64,000 nucleotides of DNA from positions 27,342 to 91,341 of the IMG/VR virus record IMGVR_UViG_3300044615_000294; one strand, given 5' to 3'. This DNA is from a virus. Shown piece by piece: positions 37,301 through 63,344 of this stretch; positions within the stretch are counted from its first letter, which is position 1, and every line of letters starts with the position of its first letter. The translations under genes and the position numbers were made by a program. The notes beneath the pieces were generated by a model. It was not told the DNA's origin, searched no databases, and was given only the letters and a program-made list of their open reading frames with translations.

Positions 37301-40300
37301 GACTTAGATGCATGTCTCATAAACTCTATCATACCACCTTTAAGCATACTGTGTAGTTCTTGTAAGAACTTACCTCTAGCATCTAATGAGGTTGTATTTG
37401 TTCCATCCTCAATTGCTTCTACCTGAGTACCTGAGTTTATAAATAGCTGTAAAGATTTTCCTGTTCTTTTAGCCCAGTTGTATACACCATCTTCTGTATC
37501 ATTTTTATCAAACAAAGTATTGATAATACCAAGTCTAGTAGTAAATGAATTAATTAATGGATTTAAATAACTCATATATTCAAACTCACTACCTGGTGTC
37601 CACGCCTCTGATAAATTTTGCATTTTATTCAGAGCATATGTTATATAACTTATAGTGTGATCATCTATATGTTCAAATACAAGATTTTTTTCTGCATTTA
37701 ATACTGCAAAGTTTGCAGAGTCAAAACCATACTTAGCTTGTAAACCAAGAATTCTATCTATAGCATTCTTTTGTCTTACTACTTTTTCAGAAATAGTACC
37801 TGCACTAAATCCAGAACTTAACTTACCAATTGGATCTAACAAAAATTCATTTATTTCATCTGCTGTTTTTTGTGTTGTCTTTGGATTCTTCATTGCTTGA
37901 TCTATATCATACATATTTCTATAAATATATATTAGACCATACATTTGTTTAGCTCTCTGATTTAGATTCAGTTCATTTTTAATAATTGATAAATCATCTA
38001 AATATAAACCTATTGCTCTTGCAAATTCATAAGCTCTATTAGAATCTAATTTTCCATCTTTACCAAATTCTTCTACAACATCTGCAACTTTTAAGAATGC
38101 AACATTTTCTGCAGTTCTTCCAATGAATTTATTTTCAAGATCACTTTTAAACTTAGATTGAAACTTACGCATTAAGCTCATTGTTTCAATTGAAGCTTTA
38201 GTAACTTCAGCAATGTTATTATCAAATACTGTAGTTTGTAAATAAGTTACTCTTGTTTTTTGAAAGTCTTGCCAGAATGAGGTTAGAGTATTTACTTCAA
38301 ATCTATTTCTCTCATTAATAACAATCTTACCATCTTGAATTGTGTATCCCGGAAGCTTTCTTAGTAACTGTTTGAATTCTGGATAAATTGTTTGTGCAGC
38401 AGTTCTAATATTTTCAAGCATTTTAGATGGATTCTTTTCTCCATTAATAGCCCGAATAGTATTATTCCATGTAGTTGCAAAATCTGCAAGCTCTGGGTAC
38501 CCTAATTCATTAAGTACTACTTTACCGTTTTGCATTTTATGTAAACTGGATAATAAAACAAGAGTCTCTGAACTTGCTAAATCCAATAAAGACTTAGTTT
38601 GAGTATCATCTTTTATACCTAAACTTTCACCTTCAGGAGTATTTGTTTTTGGATTGCTGTTTCCTGTTTGAGATTGTGTAGTTGTATCATCTGCCTCTTC
38701 ATCTACCGCTTCTTTAAACTTTTTGTTTAGGATTTTATAATCACTATTCTCATTATGATATGCAATTACTCCTGACTTTTTATCACCCCAGTTTTTAAGT
38801 GCAGTTTCAAATATTCTTATTTTATTTTCAAGCTTTTCAATTTCTAATGCCTTAGTAGGATCATCTTGTATTTTTTCTAATTCTTCTTTAGCCGTATCTA
38901 ATTTATTTTGAAAATCTACTTTAGCTTCAGCATATATTTTTTCTTTAGCGTTTTCATTTGTAAAGATTCTTATAGTTGCCTCTTTAGTACCAGCTTCTTC
39001 AGAGTATTGATCTGCTCTTAATGAGAAGAAAGAGTCAATACTTTGTGATACAAGATTACTATCCTGTTTATCTAAAGCATCAATTGAAGTTTCAGATATA
39101 TCTTCTATACCTCTATTAAGTTCCTGAAAGTTGAATGTATTAACAAGCGGAGAATATTTATTTAAAAACTTCTGGCTATTCTTTTTATTCTTACTTGCTA
39201 AGTATAACTCATTAAAGAGTTTATCTTTAGTACTTTTAGATTTAAATAGATTATTTAAGAAGTTTAAAATCTTTCTAAATATACTATTTCTTTTAGGTGA
39301 GTTAGCTTTAACACCTTGTTCTTTTGCATAAGTTCTAAATTCTTCTGCAAGATATTCCTCAAGTTGTCTATATGTAGCTTCACTAAATTTAACTTTGGTA
39401 CCATCTAATAGTGTAAAGCTTCCTTTTTGTTTTGCAACTTCATCATATAGTGCCTTTCTTTCAGTTGGATTTAAGAATAACTGAGTAAATCCGTGCCATG
39501 CTTCATGGTATACATCTACTATACTACTTCTCTGACTAATTTGAATTTCACCATATTTATTATTTAACACAGATCCGTATGCAATAAACTTTGCATAAAC
39601 ATCTGAGTTAACTATGTTCACCATTGTCTTGAAGTCAATGAATTTAGAAAGTGGAGAATTGTTCCACCAAGTCTCTGCATTCTTTATATCTTCTGGAGTT
39701 ATATTTTCTAAACCTAAATTTTTACCGGATCTGTACATTTTATCATCATCAAACAAACTACCAAGACCTCCTTTTTCTGGTTCTGGTGTATTTTCAGGCG
39801 CAATAATATTATCTCTTTCTTCTTTTGGTGTTTTAACAACTGGTTCTGTAGCTGTCTCTATTTCAGTATCTTCCACAGAAAGTTCAGAAGGAATGCTAAA
39901 CTTAATATATGTGTTATAAAATCCAGGATCTGTGCTTTCAGATATTTTAATGTTTGCACCATCTAATGTTTCTAATAATGGAATATAGGGTGCATTATAT
40001 TCATCACTAAGTTCTCCTGTTTCTAAATTATAATCTCTATAAGCGTTTCTTGATAAAACATCTACATTATAAGTCATTTTAGCGGGATAAGGTTTACCCT
40101 TTCTACTATCACCTTTTGCATATCTTAAAACATCATATACTAAATCATATTTGTTATTTAGTTCATCATTTAATAAGGTATATGTAGCACCTGTTCCATC
40201 ACTATATGTTTTTTCAGTATACTGAAAAGTAAGTGCGTCTGTTCCAGCATTATAAAGTAATGTGTGTCTTCTTGCTGTCATTGCAGCTTTATCAGAAAGA

Positions 40301-41655
40301 AATTGATTTACAAAATCATACTTTTGTTTATTAGATAGTTTAGGATTTGTAAGGACTGACGTTATCTTTTGTATTAAAACTTCAGATAAATCTGGTTTAT
40401 CTAAAGGGTATATTTTACCATTTAATGTAATTTCCGCAGATATATTAGATCCTTTTTCAATTACTGGTGTAATAGTTTTAAATGTTGCATTGTTTACAAA
40501 AGGAAGAGACCTTAAGTTTTTTAATGATATTTTCTTTTGTGCTAAGCTTTCTGGAACACCCGCACTTAATTCAACAACATTTAGAGGGTTAATCTTTTGT
40601 TTATTTATGACAGCTTGTTTTACTTCATACAATTGTTTTAATTCTTCTTGTTGAAGTTTCTTAGCTTCTTCTACAGTAATCTCTAATTTTTCTGCTACCA
40701 TTTCTGGTGTTTGAATTTGATTACCATAACCATATTGATTTAAAGCATCATATTCTCCAGCAGCATTTTTATTTACGTTTCTTAAAAACTGATATACTAT
40801 CTTACCACCTTCTTCTTTAGTAGTAAATTCCCCCTCTTCTGTAAAGTGATAGTAGTTTCCTTCTTCATCTGATAATACTAAAGCAATTCTGTTTTGTGTT
40901 TCAACACCCTCTGGTCTATTTACATTAGTTATTGATTTAGTTCTAACTACATCTTGAGCAGTAGTGTTATCAATATCTGCTTGGTTTGTATCATAAAGAT
41001 CTAATAATCTAACAGGAGTCAGCTTTAATACTTTACCGTCAACCACTAATGTACCATCAGTTACTACAGCTTGCTCAGCACTAATTTTACCTTGTATTTT
41101 TTCTATAGTACTATAGATTCTATTTTTATTAGCATCCGGCTTTTCACTTAATAATTTTAATTTATTATTTGGGTTAAGTTGTATAAGTTGCTGGAAGGTA
41201 GTACTAAGCCAACCAAATGGTCTAAATCTAAAAGGATCTTTTATCTCTTTAGGATTTTCAATTTCAGTAGGTAAGCTTGAGATAAATTGGTTTGCTACAA
41301 GTAATTCCAGTTTGTCTTTATCAGACATCTCTGGTTTAAAATAGTTTAGTACATTCTTGAAACCATCCTTTTCATTTTTAAAATCTACAGCTAATGATTT
41401 TAATGCATCCACAGAAAAATCTAAAGCATCAAACTGTGATTTTACACCAACAGCTCTCATAATACCAGGTGCTTGCTGTAAAAATTTCATTGCTGTTGCA
41501 ACATCTTTTTTCTCAGCAATTTGTGTAAATAAATTTTTCATGTAGTTATTAGCATTAAAAGGCTCATTAGCCTCTAATGAATTCAACATGTTTTTATATA
41601 CATCTTTATATAAGTTCTCTACTTGAGTTGGTGATAATGCGCAAACTATTTTCAT
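31339..41655 (-). CDS. Virion-packaged DNA-dependent RNA polymerase (crAss-like) with zincin, macro-like and NADAR domains
   Basis: 3438 aa; RIPVQG and GADFDVDK (35026-35040) catalytic motifs, DGQGW; HEAWH at 39493-39507; NADAR-like segment ~31542-31977. Confidence 0.85.
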   Translation of the reverse strand: MKIVCALSPTQVENLYKDVYKNMLNSLEANEPFNANNYMKNLFTQIAEKKDVATAMKFLQQAPGIMRAVGVKSQFDALDFSVDALKSLAVDFKNEKDGFKNVLNYFKPEMSDKDKLELLVANQFISSLPTEIENPKEIKDPFRFRPFGWLSTTFQQLIQLNPNNKLKLLSEKPDANKNRIYSTIEKIQGKISAEQAVVTDGTLVVDGKVLKLTPVRLLDLYDTNQADIDNTTAQDVVRTKSITNVNRPEGVETQNRIALVLSDEEGNYYHFTEEGEFTTKEEGGKIVYQFLRNVNKNAAGEYDALNQYGYGNQIQTPEMVAEKLEITVEEAKKLQQEELKQLYEVKQAVINKQKINPLNVVELSAGVPESLAQKKISLKNLRSLPFVNNATFKTITPVIEKGSNISAEITLNGKIYPLDKPDLSEVLIQKITSVLTNPKLSNKQKYDFVNQFLSDKAAMTARRHTLLYNAGTDALTFQYTEKTYSDGTGATYTLLNDELNNKYDLVYDVLRYAKGDSRKGKPYPAKMTYNVDVLSRNAYRDYNLETGELSDEYNAPYIPLLETLDGANIKISESTDPGFYNTYIKFSIPSELSVEDTEIETATEPVVKTPKEERDNIIAPENTPEPEKGGLGSLFDDDKMYRSGKNLGLENITPEDIKNAETWWNNSPLSKFIDFKTMVNIVNSDVYAKFIAYGSVLNNKYGEIQISQRSSIVDVYHEAWHGFTQLFLNPTERKALYDEVAKQKGSFTLLDGTKVKFSEATYRQLEEYLAEEFRTYAKEQGVKANSPKRNSIFRKILNFLNNLFKSKSTKDKLFNELYLASKNKKNSQKFLNKYSPLVNTFNFQELNRGIEDISETSIDALDKQDSNLVSQSIDSFFSLRADQYSEEAGTKEATIRIFTNENAKEKIYAEAKVDFQNKLDTAKEELEKIQDDPTKALEIEKLENKIRIFETALKNWGDKKSGVIAYHNENSDYKILNKKFKEAVDEEADDTTTQSQTGNSNPKTNTPEGESLGIKDDTQTKSLLDLASSETLVLLSSLHKMQNGKVVLNELGYPELADFATTWNNTIRAINGEKNPSKMLENIRTAAQTIYPEFKQLLRKLPGYTIQDGKIVINERNRFEVNTLTSFWQDFQKTRVTYLQTTVFDNNIAEVTKASIETMSLMRKFQSKFKSDLENKFIGRTAENVAFLKVADVVEEFGKDGKLDSNRAYEFARAIGLYLDDLSIIKNELNLNQRAKQMYGLIYIYRNMYDIDQAMKNPKTTQKTADEINEFLLDPIGKLSSGFSAGTISEKVVRQKNAIDRILGLQAKYGFDSANFAVLNAEKNLVFEHIDDHTISYITYALNKMQNLSEAWTPGSEFEYMSYLNPLINSFTTRLGIINTLFDKNDTEDGVYNWAKRTGKSLQLFINSGTQVEAIEDGTNTTSLDARGKFLQELHSMLKGGMIEFMRHASKSSSFGARIDGEGGILGGVGKGEDTRLWVDTDKFATGNAYEYLVKNHMIPYIAGELERINKFKTNRDLFKTYAGYNRELADGTMAGENFTAFDNVLTKDTKEEILAAVTNPNVRFEDYIKTNPDLYKKILDEVTTYFTDQVKDLQNYYNEAKYLSPDLLDKLAVFNLGEEKAEEVLISAYAVNSWVQNFETATLFYGDIVQYNHEKEEMHKRNSGGTSGGLKIRTDQSIRNYLTGLNGKLSYAQAEGLETLAYTGKFNSAIIQDIVRESVYSPIIERELRKDYTERLKGKVPADKLSEEVEMRVAQDLKPYGKMEEGDGQGWITFDAYRNLKIASNQWSDLQEQLYVKVIRKEPVKYSDIIEAFPVYKVQNFGHLANTSLPVMAMHKFALAPLIPSMIKNSDLESLHKQMIKENIQYVTFQTGSKVGSVTSEVNEKGKAVADKIYNDDEQKSLKTDIKFTPNTVYLEYLKDVTKVPVSYKNKTVFATQLRKLILSNLYRNGELTVKNQVLVKDYEDAVDAYGEFLKMELLNEIGYKFEDGKYIGNFKNFLELVQRELGRKNIPEHHIEFINMNPDNSLKTDLSFHLRADEIEKIIVSLIEKRLVRQKIKGEALVQVSSAMTNGIWDNQIQFDKADVEQVRKFMGTNNLPFYNYDKDRTSAMKVAIALQGDFVNLLNLDYKGEKIGTRERLNQAIKDDEWLNANDGANRKAITMIAVRIPVQGLNSMEYMEVYEFLDEAAGPIIIPPSEIVAKSGADFDVDKLTTFMPSLDKSGKFIESAMSNERLQNLIDQNKDTEEGKQMTARLLSTQKAALENKLITSLSNILSLPENYASLVRPNATYLLKDELADKLEDKVTDYDRFKNYHGEDRRLNTKGEKAISPTRVLEPLYNLHKHEANMIGKRVLGIVAIYNALHPVLNTLGAAMPKTYTYKKQKGRESRILLPHNKTKDGRISLSDITTVDGDLISELYSQLMNGSVDVEKNAWIFFIQGNEEMIGLMAMLFKSGVTREYAIKFLSQPLVREYAKEQRLLKSSYSDLITDNSGIPRTKISQSGLEIKIPDKEVAAARVLSKFIVDSKEAPKLVREEQKALDALIEKGNILNEDGQFNIEDLNKILDNPNDPKFRDHQIATLLHVLELEKQFSGYQELMRLSNPDTAISKTLQQVINRNVLLDEIENDSRVEGKVVKALRKESILSTFFDNQIVQDLVQPVFPLRNSKDISDIIISLIKTNSFQIVKRFGDTETFISDIKNNMVNSVFQNYMVGYVQSEKDLLNIPSDILAKYFTKDVFFQNTGYSFAEDIFDIINQHPELKDKYSLLSQLSIPEVKDGQKILTLNNSRLLSKGNVAEQYYQNIKDLADPNVSKVADPIQNKYISDMFRALPLVAVYQNGVGYSRFGFNEILPFEDYVAIMNNAAVDFNNQNFEDKQRYMDRVFNISMNPRNRIFKNFVSAAFVSTTPTFEKKDRFTVIPQAGVKDAKAVTKASIATQFIGFGEGIVGKDGKRSTTQIYREQAGTLANTGKYSGTDVIFVSVPGLRGDATVVKREQDKTIREAIKAIEAGATILTDNKAYIDSSSYNTGEKRLYQNLEAKGYNYSEIKIDGQPIGTWRKATAPTTQPTERKTYSGKVTSLQPNQIFVFGSNPLGINGNPSKGTGGAALVAYRIAGVKQGEKMDNRLSDSGKAWGITTVTSPGKKKSKTPQEIIEGVKKLYEYAKENPTKEFLVSDYSGTNLNGYTGQEMADMFINAGPIPSNIVFNENFDKLITTQPSTNLPGSDIKINIYAGTGENAELSNFADRAVTLNGQTFRTPEGAFQAMKIFFTNAVLLGAPASKENLEILEKLKTATGAQAKSLGAKIKDLSTATWDRDSSGVMKNILTLSFEQNPDALAKLLATGNATLTHTQDKTKWGKEFPKLLMEVREELRGTQKPGPGEQLDLFSQEEEENNLTLENQNKTIVLNSKEFKDWFANEEVKNPDLDIMDALDYYMKCKR
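32007..32470. repeat. 14-bp in-frame direct repeat TAGGTTGAGTAGTA (encodes TTQP)
   Basis: Copies at 32007-32020 and 32457-32470, 450 bp apart. Confidence 0.85.
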
Positions 41656-52232: not shown

Positions 52233-54941
52233 TCAATACTCAAATGGATATGTATTAGTACCATAAACATAACCGCCATTAGCCATATAAATCACTCCAC
52301 CAAACTTAGCTTCATCTCCTGACTTAGTATTTTTATTCTGTAGTCCAACGGCTCTAAGTGCTTGATCTCTTGTGTACCCAGCTGCTTCATAATCTGCAAC
52401 TTGTTGTTGAATAGTTTTATCTGGTGCTTCTGGAGTAATTTGTTTGTTATTAGTATTAACAATATACTCTTCACCTTTAGGACCCATCATCCATTTCATT
52501 CCTTGTGCAGCATTTGTTGCAGCAAGTTGTCTTGCATTACCTCGCATAATTGCATTTTTGTTACCTACATTAGCCCAGTAGTTTGCATTGTCTTGAGCTA
52601 CATTTGAATCAAATGTTGCTTTTCTTGTATTATACAAATCTGCTTGTTGCATTCCTGTTGTCAACTGTTTATCTTGCCATCCTGTATTTGTTGCATTAAT
52701 AGAACTTGCTTGCCCAGCATTAAATTGATTTGCTCTTGCAGCAGATCCCATAATGTTTTGTTGAGCAGCTTGATTACCAGCAAACATTGCAGCCATTGCT
52801 CCTCCAGGATTATTTTGTAACATTGGAGCCATGTTCTTTTGCATTCCCTGATTCATACCAGATGCTAACATAGCTTCATTTAAATAATCAACACCAAAGA
52901 TCTGTTGTCTTACACCAGGAGATTTACCCATGATAGGTGGAGTATTAACTGGTCTAGAAGCTAAAGCAATACCTAGATTAAGTTCATCTTCTGGTAAATT
53001 TTGAATTGGTGTAGGCTCTGGATTTTTAACATACTCTTGACAATTAGTTCCACATTCTACAATTACATCTTCTCCTGTTACAGGATCTGGACAGTAGCAT
53101 TCTTTTTCTGGTGGAATTATTGGTGGAGGACATGGTGAACATTCACCTGTTGCAGGATCTTTAGTACTTACTACAGGTTGTCCATTAGCATCAAGAATTG
53201 GTTTTCCATCTTTATCTAAACATTGTGGACAGTCTTCACCAGGAGGTGTATCTTCTAATTCAAAGAATTCTGTTACATCACTTTCAGATTTAGTTTCACA
53301 TTCTTTTAATTTTGAAACTACAGATGGAACAATCCAATTTTTTGCTAGAATATCTTCAGCAGTATAACCTCTTAAATCTCCATTTTTCATTCTTTCACAA
53401 ATGCCTTTTATGTAAGCTTTTTCTTTAGCTTCATCCCGAACATAAGGTGTTTTTCTTTTGTCATAAGTTAAATTTTTATTTTGTTCATCTGATGTACCTC
53501 TTGCTCCAATCTTTTTTCCATTTACATCAAAAATTTCAACATCTTCATCAAACTTCTTAACTTTGTGAATATTATTCTCATATTTTTTTGCATCAATTTC
53601 TTTTTGCAATTGTTCTTTACTTTTCTTTTGTCCACCACCTGGATACTTATCTATGTATCCTCCACCACTCATTATTACCGGCATACCTAACATGCCACCA
53701 GCAATTATTCCATATTTACCCATAGGTGGTTCTTGCATCTGTTGTTGTTGCTGAGCTGCCATCATTTGCATCATTCTAGGATCCATTTGTTGTGGTGGCA
53801 TTCCTTGTCCTTGAGGACCAACCATAGGCATCTGTTGTTGCTGTTGCTGTTGTTGTCTTTGAGCTGCTACCATTTGTTGGTATTTCTCCAAACCTTGTAA
53901 TGCAAATCTCTTTGCTTGTTGTTCTGGAATTCTCAAACTAACAAATACATCTTGTATATCTTCTAGATTTACACCACCTTTAATTAAAGCTACAACAATA
54001 TCATCTGCAGGAACATCATTCTCCAACTGCATTCTTACTCTTTCTTTAATTTTGTTTAGAGTAACTTCTTCGCCGTCTCTTGCTTTTCTTAAATAGATAC
54101 CACCATATCCCATTGCCGGTTGTTCTTGTGCCATTGGTTGACCTTGAGATAATTCTTCTGGCATAGCAACTGGAGAACCATCAGGCATTGTTGGAGCTTC
54201 ACCTTGCATCATTTGTTCTTGTGGCATAGGTTGTTGCCCTTCTTGAGGCATTTGTTGTTCCATACCTTCTTGTGGTTGTTCAGCATTTGGTAATATATCT
54301 TGTTCAGATATACCTGCTTCTTCCATATAGTATTTTGCAACTGTAGGAATTCCTTGAGGAAAACCTTTTTTAGATTCCTGAGCTAATGCTAATGCACCTA
54401 ATTTATAGATGCTCTTTTTAATCATTAACTGTGCAGTCTTTACTTCTATCTTATCTGAGTCTTTATCTTGTAGAACTTCTCTATACTTATTTATGTTTAG
54501 ATATTGTTTAGATAAATCTGCCGGGGTATAACCACCTTTCTTAGCTTTCTTACCAAACATCTCTAAAATGTTTGGATCAGATAATCTCATAGAAGCTGTG
54601 TCACTAAAAATAAAACTATCATCAGGAAGATTTAAAGGAACACCATTCTGACTATGTCTTGGTCCTTTAATCTCATAGAATAATGGATAACCACTTGGAT
54701 CAAATGTTAATACAGTTTCTCCACCTTCAGCTTCTAGATTAGCTTCCTCTCTTGGAACTTTAGTTATTGTTTTTCTAGCAACTGCTTTTGGCTCACTAAG
54801 TTTTAAGTTTCCTCCACCAAATGCTGTAATATCATTTGCCAAGGATCCATCAATTTGATATCCTGTTTTAGCTTTTGGAAGATCAGTAACTCTTACTTTA
54901 TATATCTCCGGCTGCTCAACTATCTTTACTTTATACTGCAT
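52233..54941 (-). CDS. Gln/Pro-rich putative cargo polyprotein with GG motifs and Cys-rich segment
   Basis: 902 aa; EAEGGE...GPRHSQNGV domain; polyQ; MGYGG, AKFGG, MANGG. Confidence 0.7.
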   Translation of the reverse strand: MQYKVKIVEQPEIYKVRVTDLPKAKTGYQIDGSLANDITAFGGGNLKLSEPKAVARKTITKVPREEANLEAEGGETVLTFDPSGYPLFYEIKGPRHSQNGVPLNLPDDSFIFSDTASMRLSDPNILEMFGKKAKKGGYTPADLSKQYLNINKYREVLQDKDSDKIEVKTAQLMIKKSIYKLGALALAQESKKGFPQGIPTVAKYYMEEAGISEQDILPNAEQPQEGMEQQMPQEGQQPMPQEQMMQGEAPTMPDGSPVAMPEELSQGQPMAQEQPAMGYGGIYLRKARDGEEVTLNKIKERVRMQLENDVPADDIVVALIKGGVNLEDIQDVFVSLRIPEQQAKRFALQGLEKYQQMVAAQRQQQQQQQQMPMVGPQGQGMPPQQMDPRMMQMMAAQQQQQMQEPPMGKYGIIAGGMLGMPVIMSGGGYIDKYPGGGQKKSKEQLQKEIDAKKYENNIHKVKKFDEDVEIFDVNGKKIGARGTSDEQNKNLTYDKRKTPYVRDEAKEKAYIKGICERMKNGDLRGYTAEDILAKNWIVPSVVSKLKECETKSESDVTEFFELEDTPPGEDCPQCLDKDGKPILDANGQPVVSTKDPATGECSPCPPPIIPPEKECYCPDPVTGEDVIVECGTNCQEYVKNPEPTPIQNLPEDELNLGIALASRPVNTPPIMGKSPGVRQQIFGVDYLNEAMLASGMNQGMQKNMAPMLQNNPGGAMAAMFAGNQAAQQNIMGSAARANQFNAGQASSINATNTGWQDKQLTTGMQQADLYNTRKATFDSNVAQDNANYWANVGNKNAIMRGNARQLAATNAAQGMKWMMGPKGEEYIVNTNNKQITPEAPDKTIQQQVADYEAAGYTRDQALRAVGLQNKNTKSGDEAKFGGVIYMANGGYVYGTNTYPFEY

Positions 54942-54946
54942 GTTAG

Positions 54947-57900
54947 TTATTTTATATATTCTACTTTACCACCTGCGGCAACAATCTCTTGAATCTGCTT
55001 AGCTGTTAATGTGTAAACACTTCCTTTTTTATATCTAGAACCTAATTGTCCACCTTTCTTAGTAATTACTTCATTACCTTCAAAACCGATACCTTGAATA
55101 TTTCTTCCAGAGTTTGAAGCAAGCCAACCTCTATCACCCATATTACTTCCAACTACTTCAGCAGAACCAAATCCACCTTGACCAGTATTTGGTGAAGCAG
55201 CATCAGATGATCTATTTTGTTTACGGTATTGATCAAAGTTTTTCTCATTCTTAATTGCATTACCAATTGTACTAGCAATTCCAGTTAAACTACCTTTACC
55301 AGCAAATAGATCTGCACCAAGTTGTTTGGGATTCCAGCTAAATGCTGATTCCTCAACTACTTTACCAATATAATTTGGATCACTAAATTCTGGTTGATCT
55401 ACAGTAATACCATCTTTACCCATAGGGATATAACCACCATAAGCCATATACTCTGGCATATAATCCATCTCCCCACCATACTCTTGTCTTATTACACCAA
55501 ACTGATTACGTGGTGCTTGTTTATTAAAGACATTTTGTTGTGCATCTGCAAATGGATTACCCATCAATCTTGTATTAGATTGAGACATTGCTTCTGGTGT
55601 TGTTGGACCTGAACCAAGTTCAGTAATACCTTGTGTTGCTCCAACTCTAGGACCTTGACCATTTGCCATTGGATCATTTGCAGATGACGCAAAGGCAGCT
55701 TGTGCTGCTTGTTCTTGTGTCATTGGACCAGCTGCAGAACCTAAAGGTTGTGCAACAGGTTGAGATGATGTCATTCCAACAGGACCAAGATTGCTTTGTG
55801 GGGCATTTGAAGCACTTGTATTAGGAACTATATTATTTGGATCCCAAACACTTTTTGGTGATTGAAATGTAACTGGGTTTTGACTTACTGCTTGTGAAGC
55901 ATCTGGTCTATTTAAATATCCTGGAAACGAACTAGAACTTGATGTAGTATTAGGAACACCTTCCTCTTGTTGCTCATCTTCATTTCCATGTCTTCTTTGG
56001 TATCTTCTGTCTTGTCTGTTCCTTTTTCTATCATCAGTAAAATCTCCGGAAACTAATCTACCCTTACTATCTATACCTCTTGCTTCATTACCATCAACAT
56101 TAGTAATAGTCATGCCAGAAACATTTCTACCACTTTTTGGTACAGTTTCATTTATAGCAGAAGGTGTAGTTCCTGGTTGTGTTGCAGTACTTCCCGGTTG
56201 TGTAGCATTAGCTGCTGGTTGACCAGGTGTTCCTGCAGGTTGCCCTGGAGTTCCAGGAGCTCCCATTGCATAGTACTCTCTAACTCTTTTAGTATCAAAT
56301 GGATTATACCATTTACCTCTATCTTTATAAGCAACCTCTCTAATACCTGTTGTTCCTTCAGGTGTTTGCCAATTAACAGGAGAAGAAACTGAACCATAAT
56401 TAAAATCTCTATTGAAACCAAAAAGACCTGGTCTTGATGGAGGAGCAATAAAATTATAACTTCCAGGAGCTTGTTGAGTATTAGTTCCTTGCGTTGTATT
56501 AGTAGTGGTTGTAGTAGGCTGTGTAGTAGTAGGTTGGGCAGTAGTGGTAGTAGGTTGAGTAGCAGTAGGTTGAGTGGTTGTAGATTTATTTAATAAATTT
56601 TGAGTAGCATTCTGTTTCCAACCATCTGCCGCAAATGGATTCATAATATTTGGATCAAGACTTAACTTTTCTCTTTGCTTATTATATCTTGGTTGGAATC
56701 CTGTATTAAATCTATTTTGTGACCATTGTTCAAAACCATCTAGTGCTTTAGGTAAGTATCCCCCTTCTTCATAGATATCATCTCCACCATATATGAATTT
56801 GTATAGATCTGGATTGTCTGAATCTATAAAACCACCTGATTGGAAACCGGGAACTGTTAAACCTAAACTTTTCATTACCTGGTCATTATAATCCCTTAAC
56901 GCAACCTGTGGGTTAAATGCATTCAAAGCTGGATTATATACTTGTTCCGCATAGTCAGGAGCAGCACCCATAGATGAATACTCATTGCCTTCTTTATCCA
57001 TTGATAAATTTGAGTTTTGATTCCTAGCACCTAACTGTTCTTGTTGTTCTGGAGTATAATCTTCAAACTTATTTATATTATTAGCTTTTCTATAATCTTC
57101 GTCTAATAAATAAGAGTAAGGACTTGACGGAAAGTAATCTTGGAAATATGCTGACCCTCTATAAATATTTTTTAAGTCCTCTCCTTGTTTATTCAATATT
57201 AGGTCATTATCCGCATCCTCATAAGGAAGTCCTGTTTTTGGATTTATTCCTTTTAAATTTGAGTAATTATATTGGAGTCCCATTTGGTCTGTAAATGGAG
57301 CCCAAGGTTTATTTGTATCTGGATAATAATATGGAGCGGCAGCTTTGTCAAAATTCAATAGCTCAGGTGTCCAAGTTTCTTTAAAATTGCGTGCATTAGA
57401 ACCCATCCATGCTATATTTGACATAGGCCCTGAATTAGCTTGTAATGGTTGTACTCCAGCATTACTTAACATTTCAGTTTTAGCTTGACCCTTTTTTAAA
57501 TTCTGATAGCTTCCTGGAATTTGATCAGCATATGGATTTACAAAAGGATTAGTTAAAAGTTCAGATGGATCTTGAGATAACATAGTAGATGGAGAGAATA
57601 CCATTCTACCATTAGCATCTACACAGTAACCTTTATTAGCATCATATGTTGCTCCTGGAGGACAGCTTAATTCTTTCTTCTTTCCTGTTGTATTATTTTG
57701 TGTAGCAGTTGATCCTGGTGTATTTGAAGCAACTTCATTTAATGCTTGGTTGTTTACAGTCTTAATAACTTTGTCCCGCATTCTTGCAGGAGTAGAAACC
57801 ATTGAGTATCCAGTATTAAATGGAGAACCTATATTACCACCTCTTTGTGGTAAGAACTTTACTAAGTCTCCAAGTACAGATACATCCCAATCTGCTGTTG

Positions 57901-58852
57901 CTTTTCTTAATCCACCTAAAGCACCAAACTCATAATTAACATCAACACCAGGTATTCCATATGGTGTTCCAAATAAAGCTTTGTTAGCTCTTCTTATTCT
58001 TCTATTACCACCCATTCCTTTTAATTTTTTTATTCCTCCAAATTGAAATTGATTATCTGTACCAGTTGTGGTATCTGTTAATTCATGCCCTAGGGATTCT
58101 CCGTATATATGTAAGTGCTCTAATGGATCATGTGGATCTTGTTGACTCATAACCCCTCCTAGTTGCATATAGTTATTGTAAGCTTCTTCTGCTTGTTTTT
58201 TATACATTGCTTCATTACCTACTTGCTGTACTGATTTAGCAAACATCTTTCCTTTCTGAGTATACTTACCCATAGGATCATTAATACTTCCAGTTGGCGG
58301 TAAATAAAATTCACTGTTTTGAACTTCATCACCTTCTGCAGCTTTTTTTAATTTTCTTATGTGAGATCTAATAAATGATCTTTTGCTAATTGCACCACCT
58401 TTCTTATATGCATTATCATATGGTTCAGCATCCATACCAACATAATATGGCTTTGTTACTTTTGGAAAGATACTGTCACTAGGAAATTGCCCACCATCTT
58501 GTGCTTCTTCTATTTCATCTTCTTGATCTTCTTCTACATATGGAGCTCCTCTATCATATGGTGCTCTTGGATCTACACTTGCAGTCTCTTGCGCTTTATA
58601 TTGTTTATATAATTCATATGTTGTATTTGCAACCTTCTCTCTTTTAACATTATATTTTTCTAAGGCAGAAATAATTTGTTCTGGAAATGATCCAGACTCA
58701 ATTTCATTTTTTATAAAACTTAATATCTCTTTATCAGAATACTGTGGTTCTTGTTCTTCAGTTTTCTTTTCAGTATACTTATTAAGTTTACTAATGAATC
58801 CTGGTTGTTCACCTTCATTTGGTTTGCGGATCCTAACTTTTTTTGTTGCCAT
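54947..58852 (-). CDS. Low-complexity putative cargo polyprotein with many GG motifs
   Basis: 1301 aa; AQDGG, YKKGG, MQLGG, FQFGG, FQSGG, YEEGG, QEYGG, MAYGG, TKKGG; TTQP and PGQPA repeats. Confidence 0.7.
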   Translation of the reverse strand: MATKKVRIRKPNEGEQPGFISKLNKYTEKKTEEQEPQYSDKEILSFIKNEIESGSFPEQIISALEKYNVKREKVANTTYELYKQYKAQETASVDPRAPYDRGAPYVEEDQEDEIEEAQDGGQFPSDSIFPKVTKPYYVGMDAEPYDNAYKKGGAISKRSFIRSHIRKLKKAAEGDEVQNSEFYLPPTGSINDPMGKYTQKGKMFAKSVQQVGNEAMYKKQAEEAYNNYMQLGGVMSQQDPHDPLEHLHIYGESLGHELTDTTTGTDNQFQFGGIKKLKGMGGNRRIRRANKALFGTPYGIPGVDVNYEFGALGGLRKATADWDVSVLGDLVKFLPQRGGNIGSPFNTGYSMVSTPARMRDKVIKTVNNQALNEVASNTPGSTATQNNTTGKKKELSCPPGATYDANKGYCVDANGRMVFSPSTMLSQDPSELLTNPFVNPYADQIPGSYQNLKKGQAKTEMLSNAGVQPLQANSGPMSNIAWMGSNARNFKETWTPELLNFDKAAAPYYYPDTNKPWAPFTDQMGLQYNYSNLKGINPKTGLPYEDADNDLILNKQGEDLKNIYRGSAYFQDYFPSSPYSYLLDEDYRKANNINKFEDYTPEQQEQLGARNQNSNLSMDKEGNEYSSMGAAPDYAEQVYNPALNAFNPQVALRDYNDQVMKSLGLTVPGFQSGGFIDSDNPDLYKFIYGGDDIYEEGGYLPKALDGFEQWSQNRFNTGFQPRYNKQREKLSLDPNIMNPFAADGWKQNATQNLLNKSTTTQPTATQPTTTTAQPTTTQPTTTTTNTTQGTNTQQAPGSYNFIAPPSRPGLFGFNRDFNYGSVSSPVNWQTPEGTTGIREVAYKDRGKWYNPFDTKRVREYYAMGAPGTPGQPAGTPGQPAANATQPGSTATQPGTTPSAINETVPKSGRNVSGMTITNVDGNEARGIDSKGRLVSGDFTDDRKRNRQDRRYQRRHGNEDEQQEEGVPNTTSSSSSFPGYLNRPDASQAVSQNPVTFQSPKSVWDPNNIVPNTSASNAPQSNLGPVGMTSSQPVAQPLGSAAGPMTQEQAAQAAFASSANDPMANGQGPRVGATQGITELGSGPTTPEAMSQSNTRLMGNPFADAQQNVFNKQAPRNQFGVIRQEYGGEMDYMPEYMAYGGYIPMGKDGITVDQPEFSDPNYIGKVVEESAFSWNPKQLGADLFAGKGSLTGIASTIGNAIKNEKNFDQYRKQNRSSDAASPNTGQGGFGSAEVVGSNMGDRGWLASNSGRNIQGIGFEGNEVITKKGGQLGSRYKKGSVYTLTAKQIQEIVAAGGKVEYIK
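56160..56582 (-). repeat. Coding repeats (GTPGQPA / ATQPG and TTQP linkers)
   Basis: Repeated gtaggttg units at 56490-56582; ccagg/cctgg units at 56160-56265. Confidence 0.65.
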
Positions 58853-58868
58853 ATTACGCGTTATATAT

Positions 58869-58913
58869 TAAATATACTAAAAATAAATCTATTAGTTAAA
58901 CCTATTAAGTTTA
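58869..58913 (-). promoter_or_regulatory. Putative phage late promoter/operator (copy 2)
   Basis: TAAACTTaatAGGTTTA-N16-TTAGTATATTTA upstream of the 1301-aa gene. Confidence 0.55.
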
Positions 58914-61900
58914 ATCAATTTCCTCTATTATGTATCCTTGTTTAATAAGTTTATCAATTTCTTTTTTGGTAAGTTCAGATACTATACCACCTTTTGCATA
59001 ACCCATTTGATTATACTTACCAGCATTTCTATAATCTTGCATAAAATCCTCAATGGGTAAAACTTTTGTTTTTGTACCCAATTGTTGTTGAAGTTCTGCT
59101 ACTTTACTTTTTGGTACAAAAATAGAAGGTATTTCTTCAAAATTAATTTTACCAGAAATACCAACTTCATCTGATATATCTGTTCTTGGAATAGTAAATC
59201 TTTCAGCATTTCCTTTTGTAGGATTTATTCCAAACATAACAGGATAATTATCTTGAACTAAAGCTTTTTCAGCATCAGATAAATTTTGCCATTCTGTTAA
59301 TCTTTTATTTTTTAAATCATCATAAAAAGAAATATCTGGACTATAAGGTGACTCAACAAATGATTCTCTACCACCTCTTTCAAACCATTTTGCTAAATCA
59401 TCTTCTACATTAATTTTGTTTTTTCCAGATAAACCAATTGCATAATCTAATGCACCCTGATGCCCTCTTGCCATTGCAGTTGAGATATTTGCATTATTTA
59501 TACCTGCAACTCCTGCACCTAACTCACCTGTTAATGGAATTTTACCTTCTTTAATTAATTCACCAACAGGCAATAATCCTTCATTTTTAATTATACCAGG
59601 TAAAGAGGCAGATGTAGTTCCATGATAATATATAGGTATTCTAGGACTTTCTTGAAGTACAGGATATTTATTTGCCATGTTTTCTAAAAGATCAACACCC
59701 TCATCATATGTTATTGATGATCCCTTAGTTTTAAATGTTTTATAATCAGGTAAAAGTTCATCTGATATAACATATGGCGCATCTTTTGGAACACTCTCTA
59801 AAACTTTAGCTCTTAAATCAACATTATTTATTACAGGAGCTAACTCATCTGTTTTTGTTAAACTTCCAGCAACGTTATCTACAGAAGAAACTACATTAGG
59901 TTCTCTTGTGATAAATTTACCTAAATTAGATATGGCTTCTGGAGCCATAGTGATTCCTCTACCAATACCTTTTACTAAGTTAACGCCAAGTTCTGGTATT
60001 GCTTCTAAGCCAGCATATGTCAGTGGATTGAATGCCATTGCTTCTGTATCAGATACATTAGCCATTTTTTCTCCTGCAAAAACATTGGGTTGTTCTTTGT
60101 AATCTGATCCAGTTGATAATCCAGTATTCTTAGTTAAGTTAGCTATTGCTGCTCCTGGTATATCTATTGGAGCTAAAATTTCAAGAGCACTTAACTTAGA
60201 GTCTCTCATTTCTTTTTGCTCTTTTTTAGTAAGTCCTGGAATATTATATTGAAATGGTTGTCCTGGTAAAAGTGTATTACCAAGTTCTTGTACACCAGCT
60301 AATGATCTTGACCAATAACTAGGTTGTAGTTTAGAACCATATTTAGATTCTGCAACAGCATCTTTTTCTCCTGGTGTTAGTTCATCTACCCACTCACCTC
60401 TTCTTTTAGGATTCCAACCTTCTTTCTTACCAAGTTTATTTACAGCATAATTATTTGTTTTATAATTATACTCACTCATAAAGTTCTGAAGAACATCTTC
60501 TGGAAAATTCTCCATAGTAACTCCTGCAGCTTTATTTAATCCCTTATTCTTTTTTAGATATTGTCTTTTCTTTTCATCTAAGAAAATATCCATTGGATTT
60601 TTATCACGGTATTCTGCTCTGAGTTTACCAATATCTGAACCTTCTCTTCCCGTTGATACTTCAGGCTTATTTACAATTTGAGAATATACATCAGGATTTT
60701 CAGCTAAAAAGTTTGGATCAATTGGTGTATATGTAGATTCTGGAGCTTTTTCATATGAAGTTACAGTTTCATACTCTTTGTCTTTATTCTTATTTTTCCT
60801 TTTTCTTTTTTCTCCACCATTATCCCATCTAGTTAGTGAAGGTACAGAGATATCTTCTACTACATAACCTCCTTTAACATATTTTTGTATTTCATCTTCT
60901 GTAAGATCTAATTCAAAACCATATTTAGCAACTTGAACATCTTCATTGGAATTATTCTTGGCAACATTGTTCATGAAGTGTATAATGCTATCATCATCAT
61001 ATAACCTAAACATTCTGTTCCACATGTTATCCCAATTTCTTTCAGAAGACTTCATAATCTCTCTATACTTATTAAGATCTTTCTTTGTGAATTTTTTTCT
61101 TTTTGTAGAATCAAATACTCCAGCTTCTTGTAACTGTTGTCTAAGTTGAACTAAGTCAGCTCTATTTTCTTGAGGTTCCATATCATGTTGAAGATCAGAT
61201 TCAACACCTGTAACACCTGCTTGTTCTTTATTTATTCTATTAATGAACTCTTCTCTTTCCTTTGGTTTAAGAGGATTAGCTCCTGAGTCTACTCCTACAT
61301 GACCCCACTCATGTGCTGCTATCTGATCAAAACCAGGCCAGTCTCCGGGATCTGTTACATTGTAAGATATAAATTCATTTCCAGTATCTTCATTAGCACT
61401 TACCCAACTAGGACCTTCATCAATATATCTAAAGTCATTTATGTTCATGACAGAACTAATTCTATCTTTTATTTCTTCAGGTGTATATCCTTGTTTCTTT
61501 AAAAGTCTTTTATAGTTTTTAGACTGAGCATATAGCTTATTAAATTCTTGAGCTTTTCTATTTGATTCTGATACATCAAACTTCTGCTGAGAATATTGTT
61601 GATATGCGGGATCTATTTGATAGTTTCCATCTTTGTCCATATAAACAGCTGCTCTTTGACTTGGTCTTGTTTCAAATAGATTAGGAATACATTCTATACC
61701 ATTCCATTCATAACCTATAGGACATGGTTGTTGTGATCCACCAAACTGAGCCATTTTTAAATCATCCTGTAAGGCTGGAGTATATACCATATCATTTAAT
61801 AGATTTACTATGGATTTAGTTCCTTTAGTAACTCCTTTTAAATCTTCAATGTCCGGATCTAATTTACCACCAGAATCTTTTACAGCTTTAAAATAATCTT

Positions 61901-63344
61901 GTAAATCTTTTTCAGTAATAGTTTGATCTGGTCTAAATCCAGCTAATCTTCTAAGTGTCATTACTCTTGCATGGATCTCATTTGGATCTACTATGTCTTC
62001 GTAATTCTTCTTTAGATTTTTATCCCATTCTGGATTTCCTGTATTAATAGCTTTCGGCTCTACAATGTTTTGTTCCACAAGATATCCTTGTGGCTTTTCT
62101 AATGCGCTAGTAAACTTATCTCCAGCTTGAATATCATGTACTCTCTCATGATACTTTGTTGCTTGTATCTGAGCTTCTGGTAGAAACTTATTCAACATTA
62201 TTTGTCTAGTATCTACATCATAGTATCCTGCTTCATTTGGACCTAAGTTTTCATCAAAGATATATGGTACTGATGCTCTAGATCTTTCTAAAGCTTCTGG
62301 ACGAATTTTATCTAAAAGCTTTTGTCCTTCAGGCGTAGGCATTACTCTATTCTGAAACCAATTCTCATAAAATGTACTCGGGTCTTCTATTTTTACACAG
62401 CCTTGAACTGGATCATTATAGAAGCCTTCTGGGCATCCTGATTCTCCACCATCTTTTTGTTTAGGAAAAATTGATGGATTACCAGCTTCTATATATCCTT
62501 CATAGTTTCTAGCTTCACCTTCTGTTGTTGTTGGATTATTATATAAATCTTCTTCAGCTCTTGCATATGCTTCTTCTTCAGATATATCTGGATTTTCTTT
62601 TAGAATTCTATTTAGTTCTGTTTGAAATTCTGATCCTCTTCTATCATAATAGGAAGCCATTGATTCATCAGAAGCCACATATGGATTTGGTCTTAAACCA
62701 ACTGTACCATATGTACTCATTCCTCCAGCTTGATTTTGTAAATGATGCATTAACTCATGCTCATACCACCAAGGGTTATTTACATTTGTAATTGGATCAT
62801 TTGGATTTTGTTTAATAACTCCTAGTCCAGCATCATAACCTGTTTCTTCAGATGAATTTACTACTTCTGGATATACAAAGTTTTTTAATGCATCTGCATA
62901 TCTTGCAGGTAATTGATTGTAAGTTTCTCCCCCTGGTTGATAAGTATACTTGGCTTTAGGATTATAAATACCTCTTGCTCTTTTACCCTTCTTTCTTTTT
63001 TTAAATAATTTGTTTACAGCAAATAATTTATTAGTTGCAGTAATATTACTATTTTGAAATTGCCCTCCTCTTTTAGCTAATGGTGTTTCTGTAACCATAT
63101 TTCCAGGAAACTGATAATCTGCACCTGGAAACATTATTTGTGAGTTACCTAAATTATCAGTACCCATCAATGGTCCTTTTCTTAATGGTGTTCCATCTTT
63201 TTCTTTCATAGTAATATTACCTGAAGGAATAATATTGAATGGATTGTTTACATCAGGAGATGTGCTTCTATAACCATCTGTTGAAAATATTTTTTCATTT
63301 GGACCACCGGGCAAACCCTTAAGCTTTTTTAAAGACCTTTTCAT
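58911..63344 (-). CDS. Polyvalent protein: three zincin-like metallopeptidase domains plus ADP-ribosyltransferase-like domain
   Basis: HELMH (62745-62759), HERVH (62136-62150), HEWGH (61299-61313), each with a downstream Glu; YHGT (59616-59627)...IST...DEV. Confidence 0.75.
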   Translation of the reverse strand: MKRSLKKLKGLPGGPNEKIFSTDGYRSTSPDVNNPFNIIPSGNITMKEKDGTPLRKGPLMGTDNLGNSQIMFPGADYQFPGNMVTETPLAKRGGQFQNSNITATNKLFAVNKLFKKRKKGKRARGIYNPKAKYTYQPGGETYNQLPARYADALKNFVYPEVVNSSEETGYDAGLGVIKQNPNDPITNVNNPWWYEHELMHHLQNQAGGMSTYGTVGLRPNPYVASDESMASYYDRRGSEFQTELNRILKENPDISEEEAYARAEEDLYNNPTTTEGEARNYEGYIEAGNPSIFPKQKDGGESGCPEGFYNDPVQGCVKIEDPSTFYENWFQNRVMPTPEGQKLLDKIRPEALERSRASVPYIFDENLGPNEAGYYDVDTRQIMLNKFLPEAQIQATKYHERVHDIQAGDKFTSALEKPQGYLVEQNIVEPKAINTGNPEWDKNLKKNYEDIVDPNEIHARVMTLRRLAGFRPDQTITEKDLQDYFKAVKDSGGKLDPDIEDLKGVTKGTKSIVNLLNDMVYTPALQDDLKMAQFGGSQQPCPIGYEWNGIECIPNLFETRPSQRAAVYMDKDGNYQIDPAYQQYSQQKFDVSESNRKAQEFNKLYAQSKNYKRLLKKQGYTPEEIKDRISSVMNINDFRYIDEGPSWVSANEDTGNEFISYNVTDPGDWPGFDQIAAHEWGHVGVDSGANPLKPKEREEFINRINKEQAGVTGVESDLQHDMEPQENRADLVQLRQQLQEAGVFDSTKRKKFTKKDLNKYREIMKSSERNWDNMWNRMFRLYDDDSIIHFMNNVAKNNSNEDVQVAKYGFELDLTEDEIQKYVKGGYVVEDISVPSLTRWDNGGEKRKRKNKNKDKEYETVTSYEKAPESTYTPIDPNFLAENPDVYSQIVNKPEVSTGREGSDIGKLRAEYRDKNPMDIFLDEKKRQYLKKNKGLNKAAGVTMENFPEDVLQNFMSEYNYKTNNYAVNKLGKKEGWNPKRRGEWVDELTPGEKDAVAESKYGSKLQPSYWSRSLAGVQELGNTLLPGQPFQYNIPGLTKKEQKEMRDSKLSALEILAPIDIPGAAIANLTKNTGLSTGSDYKEQPNVFAGEKMANVSDTEAMAFNPLTYAGLEAIPELGVNLVKGIGRGITMAPEAISNLGKFITREPNVVSSVDNVAGSLTKTDELAPVINNVDLRAKVLESVPKDAPYVISDELLPDYKTFKTKGSSITYDEGVDLLENMANKYPVLQESPRIPIYYHGTTSASLPGIIKNEGLLPVGELIKEGKIPLTGELGAGVAGINNANISTAMARGHQGALDYAIGLSGKNKINVEDDLAKWFERGGRESFVESPYSPDISFYDDLKNKRLTEWQNLSDAEKALVQDNYPVMFGINPTKGNAERFTIPRTDISDEVGISGKINFEEIPSIFVPKSKVAELQQQLGTKTKVLPIEDFMQDYRNAGKYNQMGYAKGGIVSELTKKEIDKLIKQGYIIEEID

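Follow-up and report, generated by a model that had tools for sequence, protein, structure and literature searches.

Three adjacent genes share a Gly-Gly junction motif

Near one end of IMG/VR virus record IMGVR_UViG_3300044615_000294, a contig of 91,341 bp with an estimated completeness of 77%, three adjacent minus-strand genes encode proteins of 1477, 1301 and 902 amino acids (aa), here named P0001, P0002 and P0003 (Table 1). We analyzed them within a window of 64,000 nucleotides, contig bases 27342-91341, and noticed that all three proteins are punctuated by a short peptide, Φ-[KQ]-x-G-G, in which Φ is a hydrophobic residue. This motif is enriched in and specific to these proteins, remains conserved even where its surroundings are no longer recognizably similar, and marks the points at which cassettes are inserted, deleted and duplicated.

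Table 1. Features of the three genes and of the adjoining gene end, in window positions
Feature	Residues (aa)	Window position	Strand	Remarks
3' end of ~1820-aa gene upstream of P0001		63344..64000	(-)	clipped at contig end; full-length in relatives
P0001, predicted mosaic cargo ('polyvalent') protein	1-1477	58911..63344	(-)	
P0001 conserved beta-rich N-domain	19-90	63075..63290	(-)	ends in PLAKRGG; pLDDT 71-85; common to family members
P0001 junction motif LAKRGG	89-94	63063..63080	(-)	
P0001 junction motif TYQPGG	134-139	62928..62945	(-)	homology with 26 relatives ends here
P0001 zincin cassette 1	141-295	62460..62924	(-)	HELMH at 196; missing from L004 and L005 relatives
P0001 junction motif KQKDGG	295-300	62445..62462	(-)	end point of 22 homology blocks
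P0001 zincin cassette 2	301-520	61785..62444	(-)	HERVH at 399; CPxG..GxC hairpin at start; Pfam DUF6782
P0001 junction motif MAQFGG	531-536	61737..61754	(-)	
P0001 zincin cassette 3	537-800	60945..61736	(-)	HEWGH at 678; low-confidence model
P0001 internal LT module LTEDEIQKYVKGGYVVE	814-830	60855..60905	(-)	
P0001 junction motif RWDNGG	839-844	60813..60830	(-)	in 705-aa relative, adjoins C-terminal LT module directly
P0001 widely shared cassette	845-1150	59895..60812	(-)	no putative function assigned; no Pfam match
P0001 ART-like region (YHGT...)	1190-1447	59004..59777	(-)	lead only
P0001 junction motif GYAKGG	1448-1453	58986..59003	(-)	
P0001 C-terminal LT module LTKKEIDKLIKQGYIIE	1458-1474	58923..58973	(-)	module C-terminal in 60 family members
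P0002, predicted cargo protein	1-1301	54947..58852	(-)	largely low-complexity
P0002 YKKGG	149-153	58394..58408	(-)	G152, G153 invariant
P0002 tandem cluster FQSGG...KFIYGG...YEEGG	670-698	56759..56845	(-)	kept even in BLAST-undetectable fused relatives
P0002 tandem pair QEYGG...YMAYGG	1123-1140	55433..55486	(-)	invariant
P0002 TKKGG	1264-1268	55049..55063	(-)	corresponds to (V/I)xKYGG just before joint in fused relatives
P0002 C-terminal LT module LTAKQIQEIVAAGGKVE	1282-1298	54959..55009	(-)	
P0003, predicted cargo protein	1-902	52233..54941	(-)	
P0003 conserved N-domain	55-220	54282..54779	(-)	in 1472 clusters (50% identity)
P0003 MGYGG	277-281	54099..54113	(-)	starts cassette missing from L007 ortholog
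P0003 hydrophobic Gly-rich segment	409-437	53631..53717	(-)	like predicted transmembrane helix of gp45
P0003 C-terminal tandem pair AKFGG...MANGG	878-890	52272..52310	(-)	invariant

All motif copies named in the initial annotation of this DNA are present in the three open reading frames (ORFs), on the minus strand and where it had placed them. The bare Gly-Gly dipeptide is weakly enriched, close to what glycine content predicts (11 observed versus 9.3 expected in P0001, 15 versus 12.8 in P0002 and 14 versus 7.3 in P0003). By contrast, [YFMW]xxGG has 16 copies in the three proteins, or 4.35 per 1000 aa, whereas the remaining 36 ORFs of the window have four (0.24 per 1000 aa), an 18-fold difference in density. 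Composition-preserving shuffles of the three proteins contain 3.3 copies on average, and none of 5000 reaches 16 (P<2e-4; ~5-fold enrichment). The 2231-, 3438- and 2075-aa giant cargo proteins of the same phage show no enrichment, while in the families of P0001 and P0003 relatives the motif stands 4-5 times above shuffles in each.

A logo from ~300 relatives in these two families, with similar sites removed, reads [Y/F/M]-[K/Q]-[K/D/E or Y]-G-G-[E/S/Y/F]-[I/V/L]. If the motif is numbered as a protease site with the second Gly at P1, hydrophobic residues are most frequent at P5 and Lys/Gln at P4; residue preferences lie on both flanks of Gly-Gly, and Pro is allowed directly after it. Tandem sites are frequent, spaced 8-19 residues apart. 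Some Gly-Gly copies are not joints: YVKGG (825) and VAAGG (1294) belong to a separate element, the LT module described below, and KDSGG (492, P0001) and AKKGG (136, P0003) are part of confidently folded domains. Near the N-terminus, GLPGG-P (13) is a conserved motif with Pro next. Among the single-Gly variants that had been proposed, KAxxG is modestly supported (6 observed versus 1.7 in shuffles, P=0.009). We also noticed a weaker second motif, (L/Φ)-(P/K/R)-K-A-x-x-G, represented by LPKAKTG, LKKAAEG, LPKALDG and LRKARDG (approximate window positions 54872-54880, 58331-58342 and 56732-56752, minus strand); at P0002 168-175 and P0003 22-27 it is largely invariant among distant orthologs.

The frequent exchange of cassettes described below would suit a signal in the DNA itself, with the Gly-Gly codons acting as internal, Shine-Dalgarno-like ribosome-binding sites (GGAGG) or as microhomology for recombination. 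However, glycine is encoded at the motif as elsewhere in these genes (mostly GGT GGT or GGT GGA), GGAGG is seldom used, and the junctions have no nucleotide string in common. The signal therefore lies at the protein level, and codon usage largely refutes the DNA-level explanation, to which we give hardly any credence.

The motif lies in linkers between folded cassettes

P0001 is built from an N-domain, a basic linker, zincins 1, 2 and 3, an LT module, a conserved cassette, an ART-like region and a second LT module. In an AlphaFold model covering residues 1-860, GG 93, 138, 299, 535 and 843 all fall in segments of pLDDT <50 between domains of pLDDT 70-93. The confident domains span residues 19-90, 141-295 (zincin 1) and 307-520 (zincin 2), and zincin 3 is modeled less confidently. 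These five sites agree with the earlier proposal that the motifs of the 1477-aa protein stand at domain boundaries.

The three zincins recognized in the initial annotation each have their HExxH (residues 196, 399 and 678), but only the second reaches the Pfam cut-off (DUF6782, 27.0 bits, exactly at cut-off), and this was the only match in a Pfam scan. The three cassettes are paralogs, with a fold weakly similar to IrrE/ImmA-type, selecase and Wss1 zincins; Foldseek searches of the PDB with the P0001 and P0003 models gave no match at E<=0.001. A Cys hairpin, CPxG[YF]...GxC, directly follows Gly-Gly at the start of zincin cassettes 2 and 3 (GGESGCPEGFYNDPVQGC and GGSQQPCPIGYEWNGIEC; ~62391-62432 and ~61680-61721, minus strand) and occurs again in P0002 (SCPPGATYDANKGYC; approximately 57613-57663, minus strand). 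The ART assigned to P0001 earlier has no Pfam match. Likeness to PARP, DarT and Arr clusters (Atlas feature scores 0.83-0.85) points to such a domain at residues 1190-1447, an assignment that we treat as a lead only.

Relatives exchange cassettes at the second glycine

P0001 has more than 150 relatives, mosaic proteins of 350 to 2900 aa that between them carry VanY, SLT, phage lysozyme, YkuD, LysM, SET, ART-PolyVal and DUF6782 domains. HExxH zincin cassettes, one to three per protein, are found in 107 of 153 family members, the remaining 46 having none. Local homology with P0001 ends at residues 139-141, 299-302, 536-537 and 843-844, that is, at Gly-Gly. When the family was compared all-against-all, 10.9% of internal homology-block ends fell exactly on the second Gly versus an expected 0.7%; the P0003 family, which is less redundant, gives 6.8% and 1.1%. 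Across ~300 relatives of the two families, block ends at the second Gly thus occur at 6 to 16 times the chance frequency.

Exact cassette joints are visible in relatives of 357, 705, 1045 and 1134 aa. The 357-aa relative has nothing besides the N-domain, zincin 1 and LT modules. In the 1045-aa relative the sequence ...YTYDEGG is joined straight to zincin 3, and in the 705-aa relative the same sequence is joined to zincin 2, while ...TRMDDGG leads straight into the C-terminal LT module. Close relatives gain or lose whole cassettes at GG points, in line with the modular addition of effector domains envisaged in the initial annotation. We also considered whether the relatives of 2700-2900 aa are fusions with P0002/P0003 and rejected this, as they are merely longer strings of cassettes. 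A small cassette, ALLTKK...W.AADGG followed by NDLTTCHKCGG and further sequence, recurs after a GG site in many relatives (P0133, P0136, P0141, P0147 and L007:10001-13405); it has the look of a zinc ribbon and is not in this window.

GG islands outlast the sequence around them and mark a gene boundary

In an ortholog of P0002 with 27% identity, most of the sequence has changed, and the GG islands at 152, 313, 338, 673, 1126, 1139 and 1267 are invariant.

In at least 13 of the best 150 clusters containing the P0003 N-domain, this domain lies 600-1000 residues inside a longer protein. These fused proteins measure 1400-2000 aa (relatives P0207, P0219, P0224, P0228, P0232, P0234, P0243, P0247 and others). 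In the four that we inspected, the N-terminus MKKRVRIYK... and an F-x-x-GG-F...YKFIYGG island match P0002. With P0002-like sequence and the P0003 N-domain in one chain, the 1301-aa and 902-aa genes are therefore a single gene there, and GG motifs stand directly before the start of the P0003-like part, the position of the P0002/P0003 gene boundary in this phage. At its other end P0003 has a conserved aromatic tail, ...GGYVYGTNTYPFEY (52233-52271, minus strand), with YPF.Y invariant in four orthologs; this tail recalls an outer-membrane beta-signal.

Enrichment, position in linkers, conservation and coincidence with cassette breakpoints together lead us to conclude that the motif is under selection and tags the junctions of polyvalent-type mosaic cargo proteins. 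A purely structural origin, in which a domain cap and beta-turn were inherited as cassettes were shuffled with their linkers, with no signaling or processing role of their own, is improbable. The paralogous zincins could have brought their linkers along, Gly-Gly is a natural chain breaker, and some copies do lie in folded domains. Yet the motif follows unrelated domains (the N-domain, the zincins and the LT module here, and other enzymes in relatives) and persists in disordered sequence whose surroundings have diverged. Both its absence from linkers in the three giant cargo proteins and the excess over shuffles in ~300 diverse proteins also speak against a mere by-product.

A second element often follows the motif

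The LT module, LTxxEIxxxxxxG[YFG]xΦE, spans ~20 residues and differs from the GG motif. Its three copies in the window are confined to these cargo proteins. Of 153 P0001 family members, 103 have it, 60 of these at the C-terminus, and in most cases it begins 4-5 residues past a GG motif. We rejected a likeness to the double-glycine bacteriocin leader (LSxxELxxIxGG) because the spacing differs and the LT module has a single conserved Gly.

Are the junctions cut?

The initial annotation read the three proteins as polyproteins that are cut at, or packaged into the capsid through, a di-glycine signal. The evidence above agrees with the delimiting of exchangeable modules in proteins at a cargo position; cutting, by contrast, finds no support so far. 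As polyprotein processing, Φ-x-x-G-G would be a P5-P1 site cleaved after the second Gly to release the modules. Several observations suit such a site: the residue preferences on the N-terminal side, the disordered linkers, the position at the C-terminal end of every cassette, the breakpoints exactly after the second Gly, and the GG motifs in the fused single gene where a gene boundary lies here. The protease would be one of the proteins' own zincin cassettes, an unrecognized phage protease or a host enzyme, and would act either in the head once the cargo is packaged or in the host once it is ejected. The one to three HExxH zincins in 107 of 153 family members, with their weak likeness in fold to the site-specific IrrE/ImmA-type and Wss1/selecase enzymes, also suit processing. 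Enzymes predicted to act in the periplasm and in the cytoplasm also share one chain. Zincin processing of such proteins was predicted earlier (PMC5512222), and for crAss-like phages the authors of the virion RNA polymerase (vRNAP) study considered fused vRNAP-block proteins of some members 'likely cleaved'.

We searched for a protease in the contig, in a relative of 113,498 bp that is complete, with terminal repeats, and in a second relative of 97% completeness. Neither C5 (PF00770, adenain) nor C48 (PF02902, Ulp1) gave a match at E<=1 in the three genomes, and C39 (PF03412) gave only an 11-bit, sub-threshold match in one relative. In the contig and the complete relatives there was no match to the prohead protease families S78 (HK97-type; PF04586) and S49 (ClpP-like; PF01343), the T4-type (S77) and phiKZ-type families not being searched, nor to the Prok-JAB Pfam model. 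The peptidase-like parts that we did see are the zincin cassettes of these proteins only. The CE-clan or prohead protease that the initial annotation had called for was thus not found among C48, C5, S78 and S49 in the contig and the two relatives, and cutting by either kind of enzyme is unsupported by these genomes. A 415-aa ORF between the portal and major capsid genes (L002:1134-2381, minus strand; contig bases, outside the window) stands where a scaffold or prohead protease is usually encoded, has no PHROG match and is a candidate partner of the junction motif.

Other features of the motif also argue against cleavage. Tandem sites 8-16 residues apart would yield tiny peptides, the preferred residues flank Gly-Gly on either side, a copy lies inside a confidently folded domain (P0003 residue 136), Pro is tolerated after Gly-Gly, and 46 of 153 family members have no HExxH. 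Cargo protein 1 (gp45) of Bacteroides phage crAss001 (Bayfield et al. 2023) allows a comparison in a virion. It contains 21 GG versus 13 expected. Its segments resolved by electron cryo-microscopy (cryo-EM) are residues 214-245 and 425-552, the latter portal-bound (PMC10172136), and the deposited chain comprises 126 modeled residues ending at 552. A[FY]GG copies flank both resolved segments, and the AFGG at 425-428 forms the ordered N-terminal edge of the portal-bound domain. Because the portal-bound segment begins at or before this AFGG, contiguous with its domain, that copy seems to be uncut. Gel bands of crAss001 virions run at ~150, 270 and >300 kDa (PMC6235969), as would be expected for uncut, full-length giant cargo; no gel band is assigned to gp45 in the 2018 supplements. 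In view of the searches, the tandem sites and the gp45 copy, we consider polyprotein processing doubtful, and the more specific version, in which a cargo-borne zincin cuts the junctions and is perhaps switched on by DNA or ejection, does not strike us as likely either. Packaging through a di-glycine signal, the other alternative of the initial annotation, fits the data at least as well as cutting.

We lean towards an uncut hinge or docking handle over a protease site. In our reading, the cargo (ejection) proteins are built of exchangeable cassettes that fold independently (here zincin-like peptidases and an ART-like domain, in relatives further ones), each ending in a disordered linker with Φ-[K/Q]-x-G-G followed by x-[I/V/L], and often with an LT module within 4-5 residues. 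The uncut junction would combine a Gly-Gly hinge with a hydrophobic handle. The hinge may keep the modules autonomous, so that they unfold one by one at ejection, and/or the motif may serve packaging by attaching the chain to a site that is repeated on the portal, tail or procapsid. We put the chance that the motif is such a hinge or handle, rather than a scissile site inside the virion, at about even.

Several points weigh against an uncut hinge or handle. A plain hinge needs neither a hydrophobic residue at -3 nor Lys/Gln at -2, and there is no known binding partner. The motif always stands at the C-terminal end of the upstream cassette, like a cleavage tag. Relatives mix periplasm-looking (VanY, SLT, YkuD, LysM) with cytoplasm-looking (SET, ART) enzymes, which is easier to explain if the junctions are cut, because the domains would be released from each other. 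The evidence from crAss001 comes from a very distant protein whose homology cannot be demonstrated by sequence. Finally, zincins sit in the same proteins, and zincin processing of such proteins has been predicted (PMC5512222).

Relation to known systems

Polyvalent proteins of phages and conjugative elements are large multidomain proteins encoded next to virion genes; they are mosaic and contain zincin-like peptidases, ARTs, peptidoglycan hydrolases and further effector domains. Their packaging and delivery along with the DNA was predicted, and zincin-mediated processing proposed (PMC5512222; Iyer, Burroughs, Anand, de Souza, Aravind 2017). That paper names neither a junction nor a cleavage motif, and the words linker, glycine and crAss do not appear in it (PMC5512222). 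Our proteins resemble them in having several effector domains per mosaic chain (in P0001, three HExxH zincins and the ART-like region) and in being phage-encoded in a virion neighborhood with the large terminase, portal and major capsid genes on the contig, packaging being predicted here from the genes. Unlike polyvalent proteins as described, they have their cassettes delimited by a Φ-[KQ]-x-G-G junction peptide and the LT module.

The adenovirus protease (adenain) and pS273R of African swine fever virus process polyproteins of eukaryotic viruses at Gly-Gly-X, and the adenain site is (M/L/I)-X-G-G|X with a hydrophobic P4. The sites in our proteins are likewise repeated in proteins of the virion core and have a hydrophobic residue upstream of Gly-Gly, but this residue lies at P5 rather than P4, and no C5/C48 protease is detectable here. 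The double-glycine leaders of the C39 system are N-terminal, comprise 15-30 residues and end in GG, whereas our sites are internal and multiple. In T4 (capsid-targeting sequences and gp21) and phiKZ (gp175), packaged and injected effectors such as the ART Alt carry head-targeting signals that the prohead protease removes at sites ending in Glu (L/I-x-E and S/A/G-x-E). Our proteins resemble these internal proteins as predicted packaged effectors with short signals; they differ in using Gly-Gly and in the lack of a match to the S78/S49 prohead families.

In the papers searched we found no description of a Φ-x-x-G-G junction motif, in agreement with the initial annotation, which knew of no such system in crAss-like phages. 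Crassviruses carry megadaltons of cargo protein. A junction code conserved in thousands of cargo proteins would predict module boundaries and help to mine new injected effectors. It is also a concrete target for GG-to-AA mutation and for re-analysis of crAss001 mass-spectrometry and cryo-EM data, and through it the long-standing prediction that polyvalent proteins undergo processing can be tested directly. If the junctions are uncut, the motif is probably a docking or threading signal of the cargo. If they are cut, a tailed phage would use a polyprotein strategy. Should the zincins do the cutting, this large crAss-like group would inject polyproteins that become separate effectors acting in the periplasm and the cytoplasm, a modular plug-in processing code of a kind not described for tailed phages.

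Genomic context and the relation to crAss001 cargo

The contig starts with minus-strand genes for the large terminase (TerL), the portal and a truncated major capsid protein. At the end of the window, a minus-strand series runs from the 3' end of the ~1820-aa gene through the 1477-, 1301- and 902-aa genes to genes of 500, 759, 2231, 3438 and 2075 aa. The ~1820-aa gene product has a weak BLAST match to the crAss001 muzzle protein gp44 (E 0.001) and is probably a muzzle-protein homolog. The 2231-aa protein matches crAss001 gp47 (E 7e-9), and the 3438-aa protein matches gp50 (E 5e-14). From these two matches and the gene series, we therefore take the region to be the cargo and vRNAP end of a crAss-like virion block. 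Lying between the muzzle-like gene and the giant vRNAP-block genes, the three genes are placed as cargo genes, and this position suggests that P0001, P0002 and P0003 are probably packed in the particle of an uncultured crAss-like phage and injected. Judged by its sequence, the lineage of this phage is distant from every cultured phage: tblastn searches of 50,697 GenBank phage records with P0001, P0003 and the 2231-aa protein gave no match. PHROGs has no family for P0001, P0002, P0003 or the 500-aa and 759-aa neighbors.

Like crAss001 gp45 (Pfam PF25725; PDB 7QOG and others), the P0002/P0003 pair is encoded between the muzzle gene and the vRNAP block and is Gly-rich with a hydrophobic Gly-rich segment; unlike gp45, this position holds three genes here, which carry enzyme cassettes that gp45 is without. 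Among 48,161 PDB representatives, the best match to the P0003 N-domain (residues 55-220) is chain 7qog_M, the portal-bound fragment of gp45, though a weak one (Z 5.0, root-mean-square deviation 5.1 Å over 99 aligned residues, 18% identity; the next match has Z 4.7). No sequence link between P0003 and gp45 was found by BLAST or by hhalign with 4- and 19-sequence profiles, and a hidden Markov model of 147 P0003-family segments gave no match in the six-frame translation of crAss001. PF25725 (crAss_CARG1), which models the portal-binding domain, finds gp45 itself at E 2.6e-69 and nothing at E<=10 in the contig or two relatives. We treat the weak structural match as a lead that the pair may be a counterpart of cargo protein 1.

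Farther along the series, the 3438-aa vRNAP-block protein (31339-41655, minus strand) ends in a C-terminal NADAR domain (residues 3236-3359, Pfam E 8e-11).

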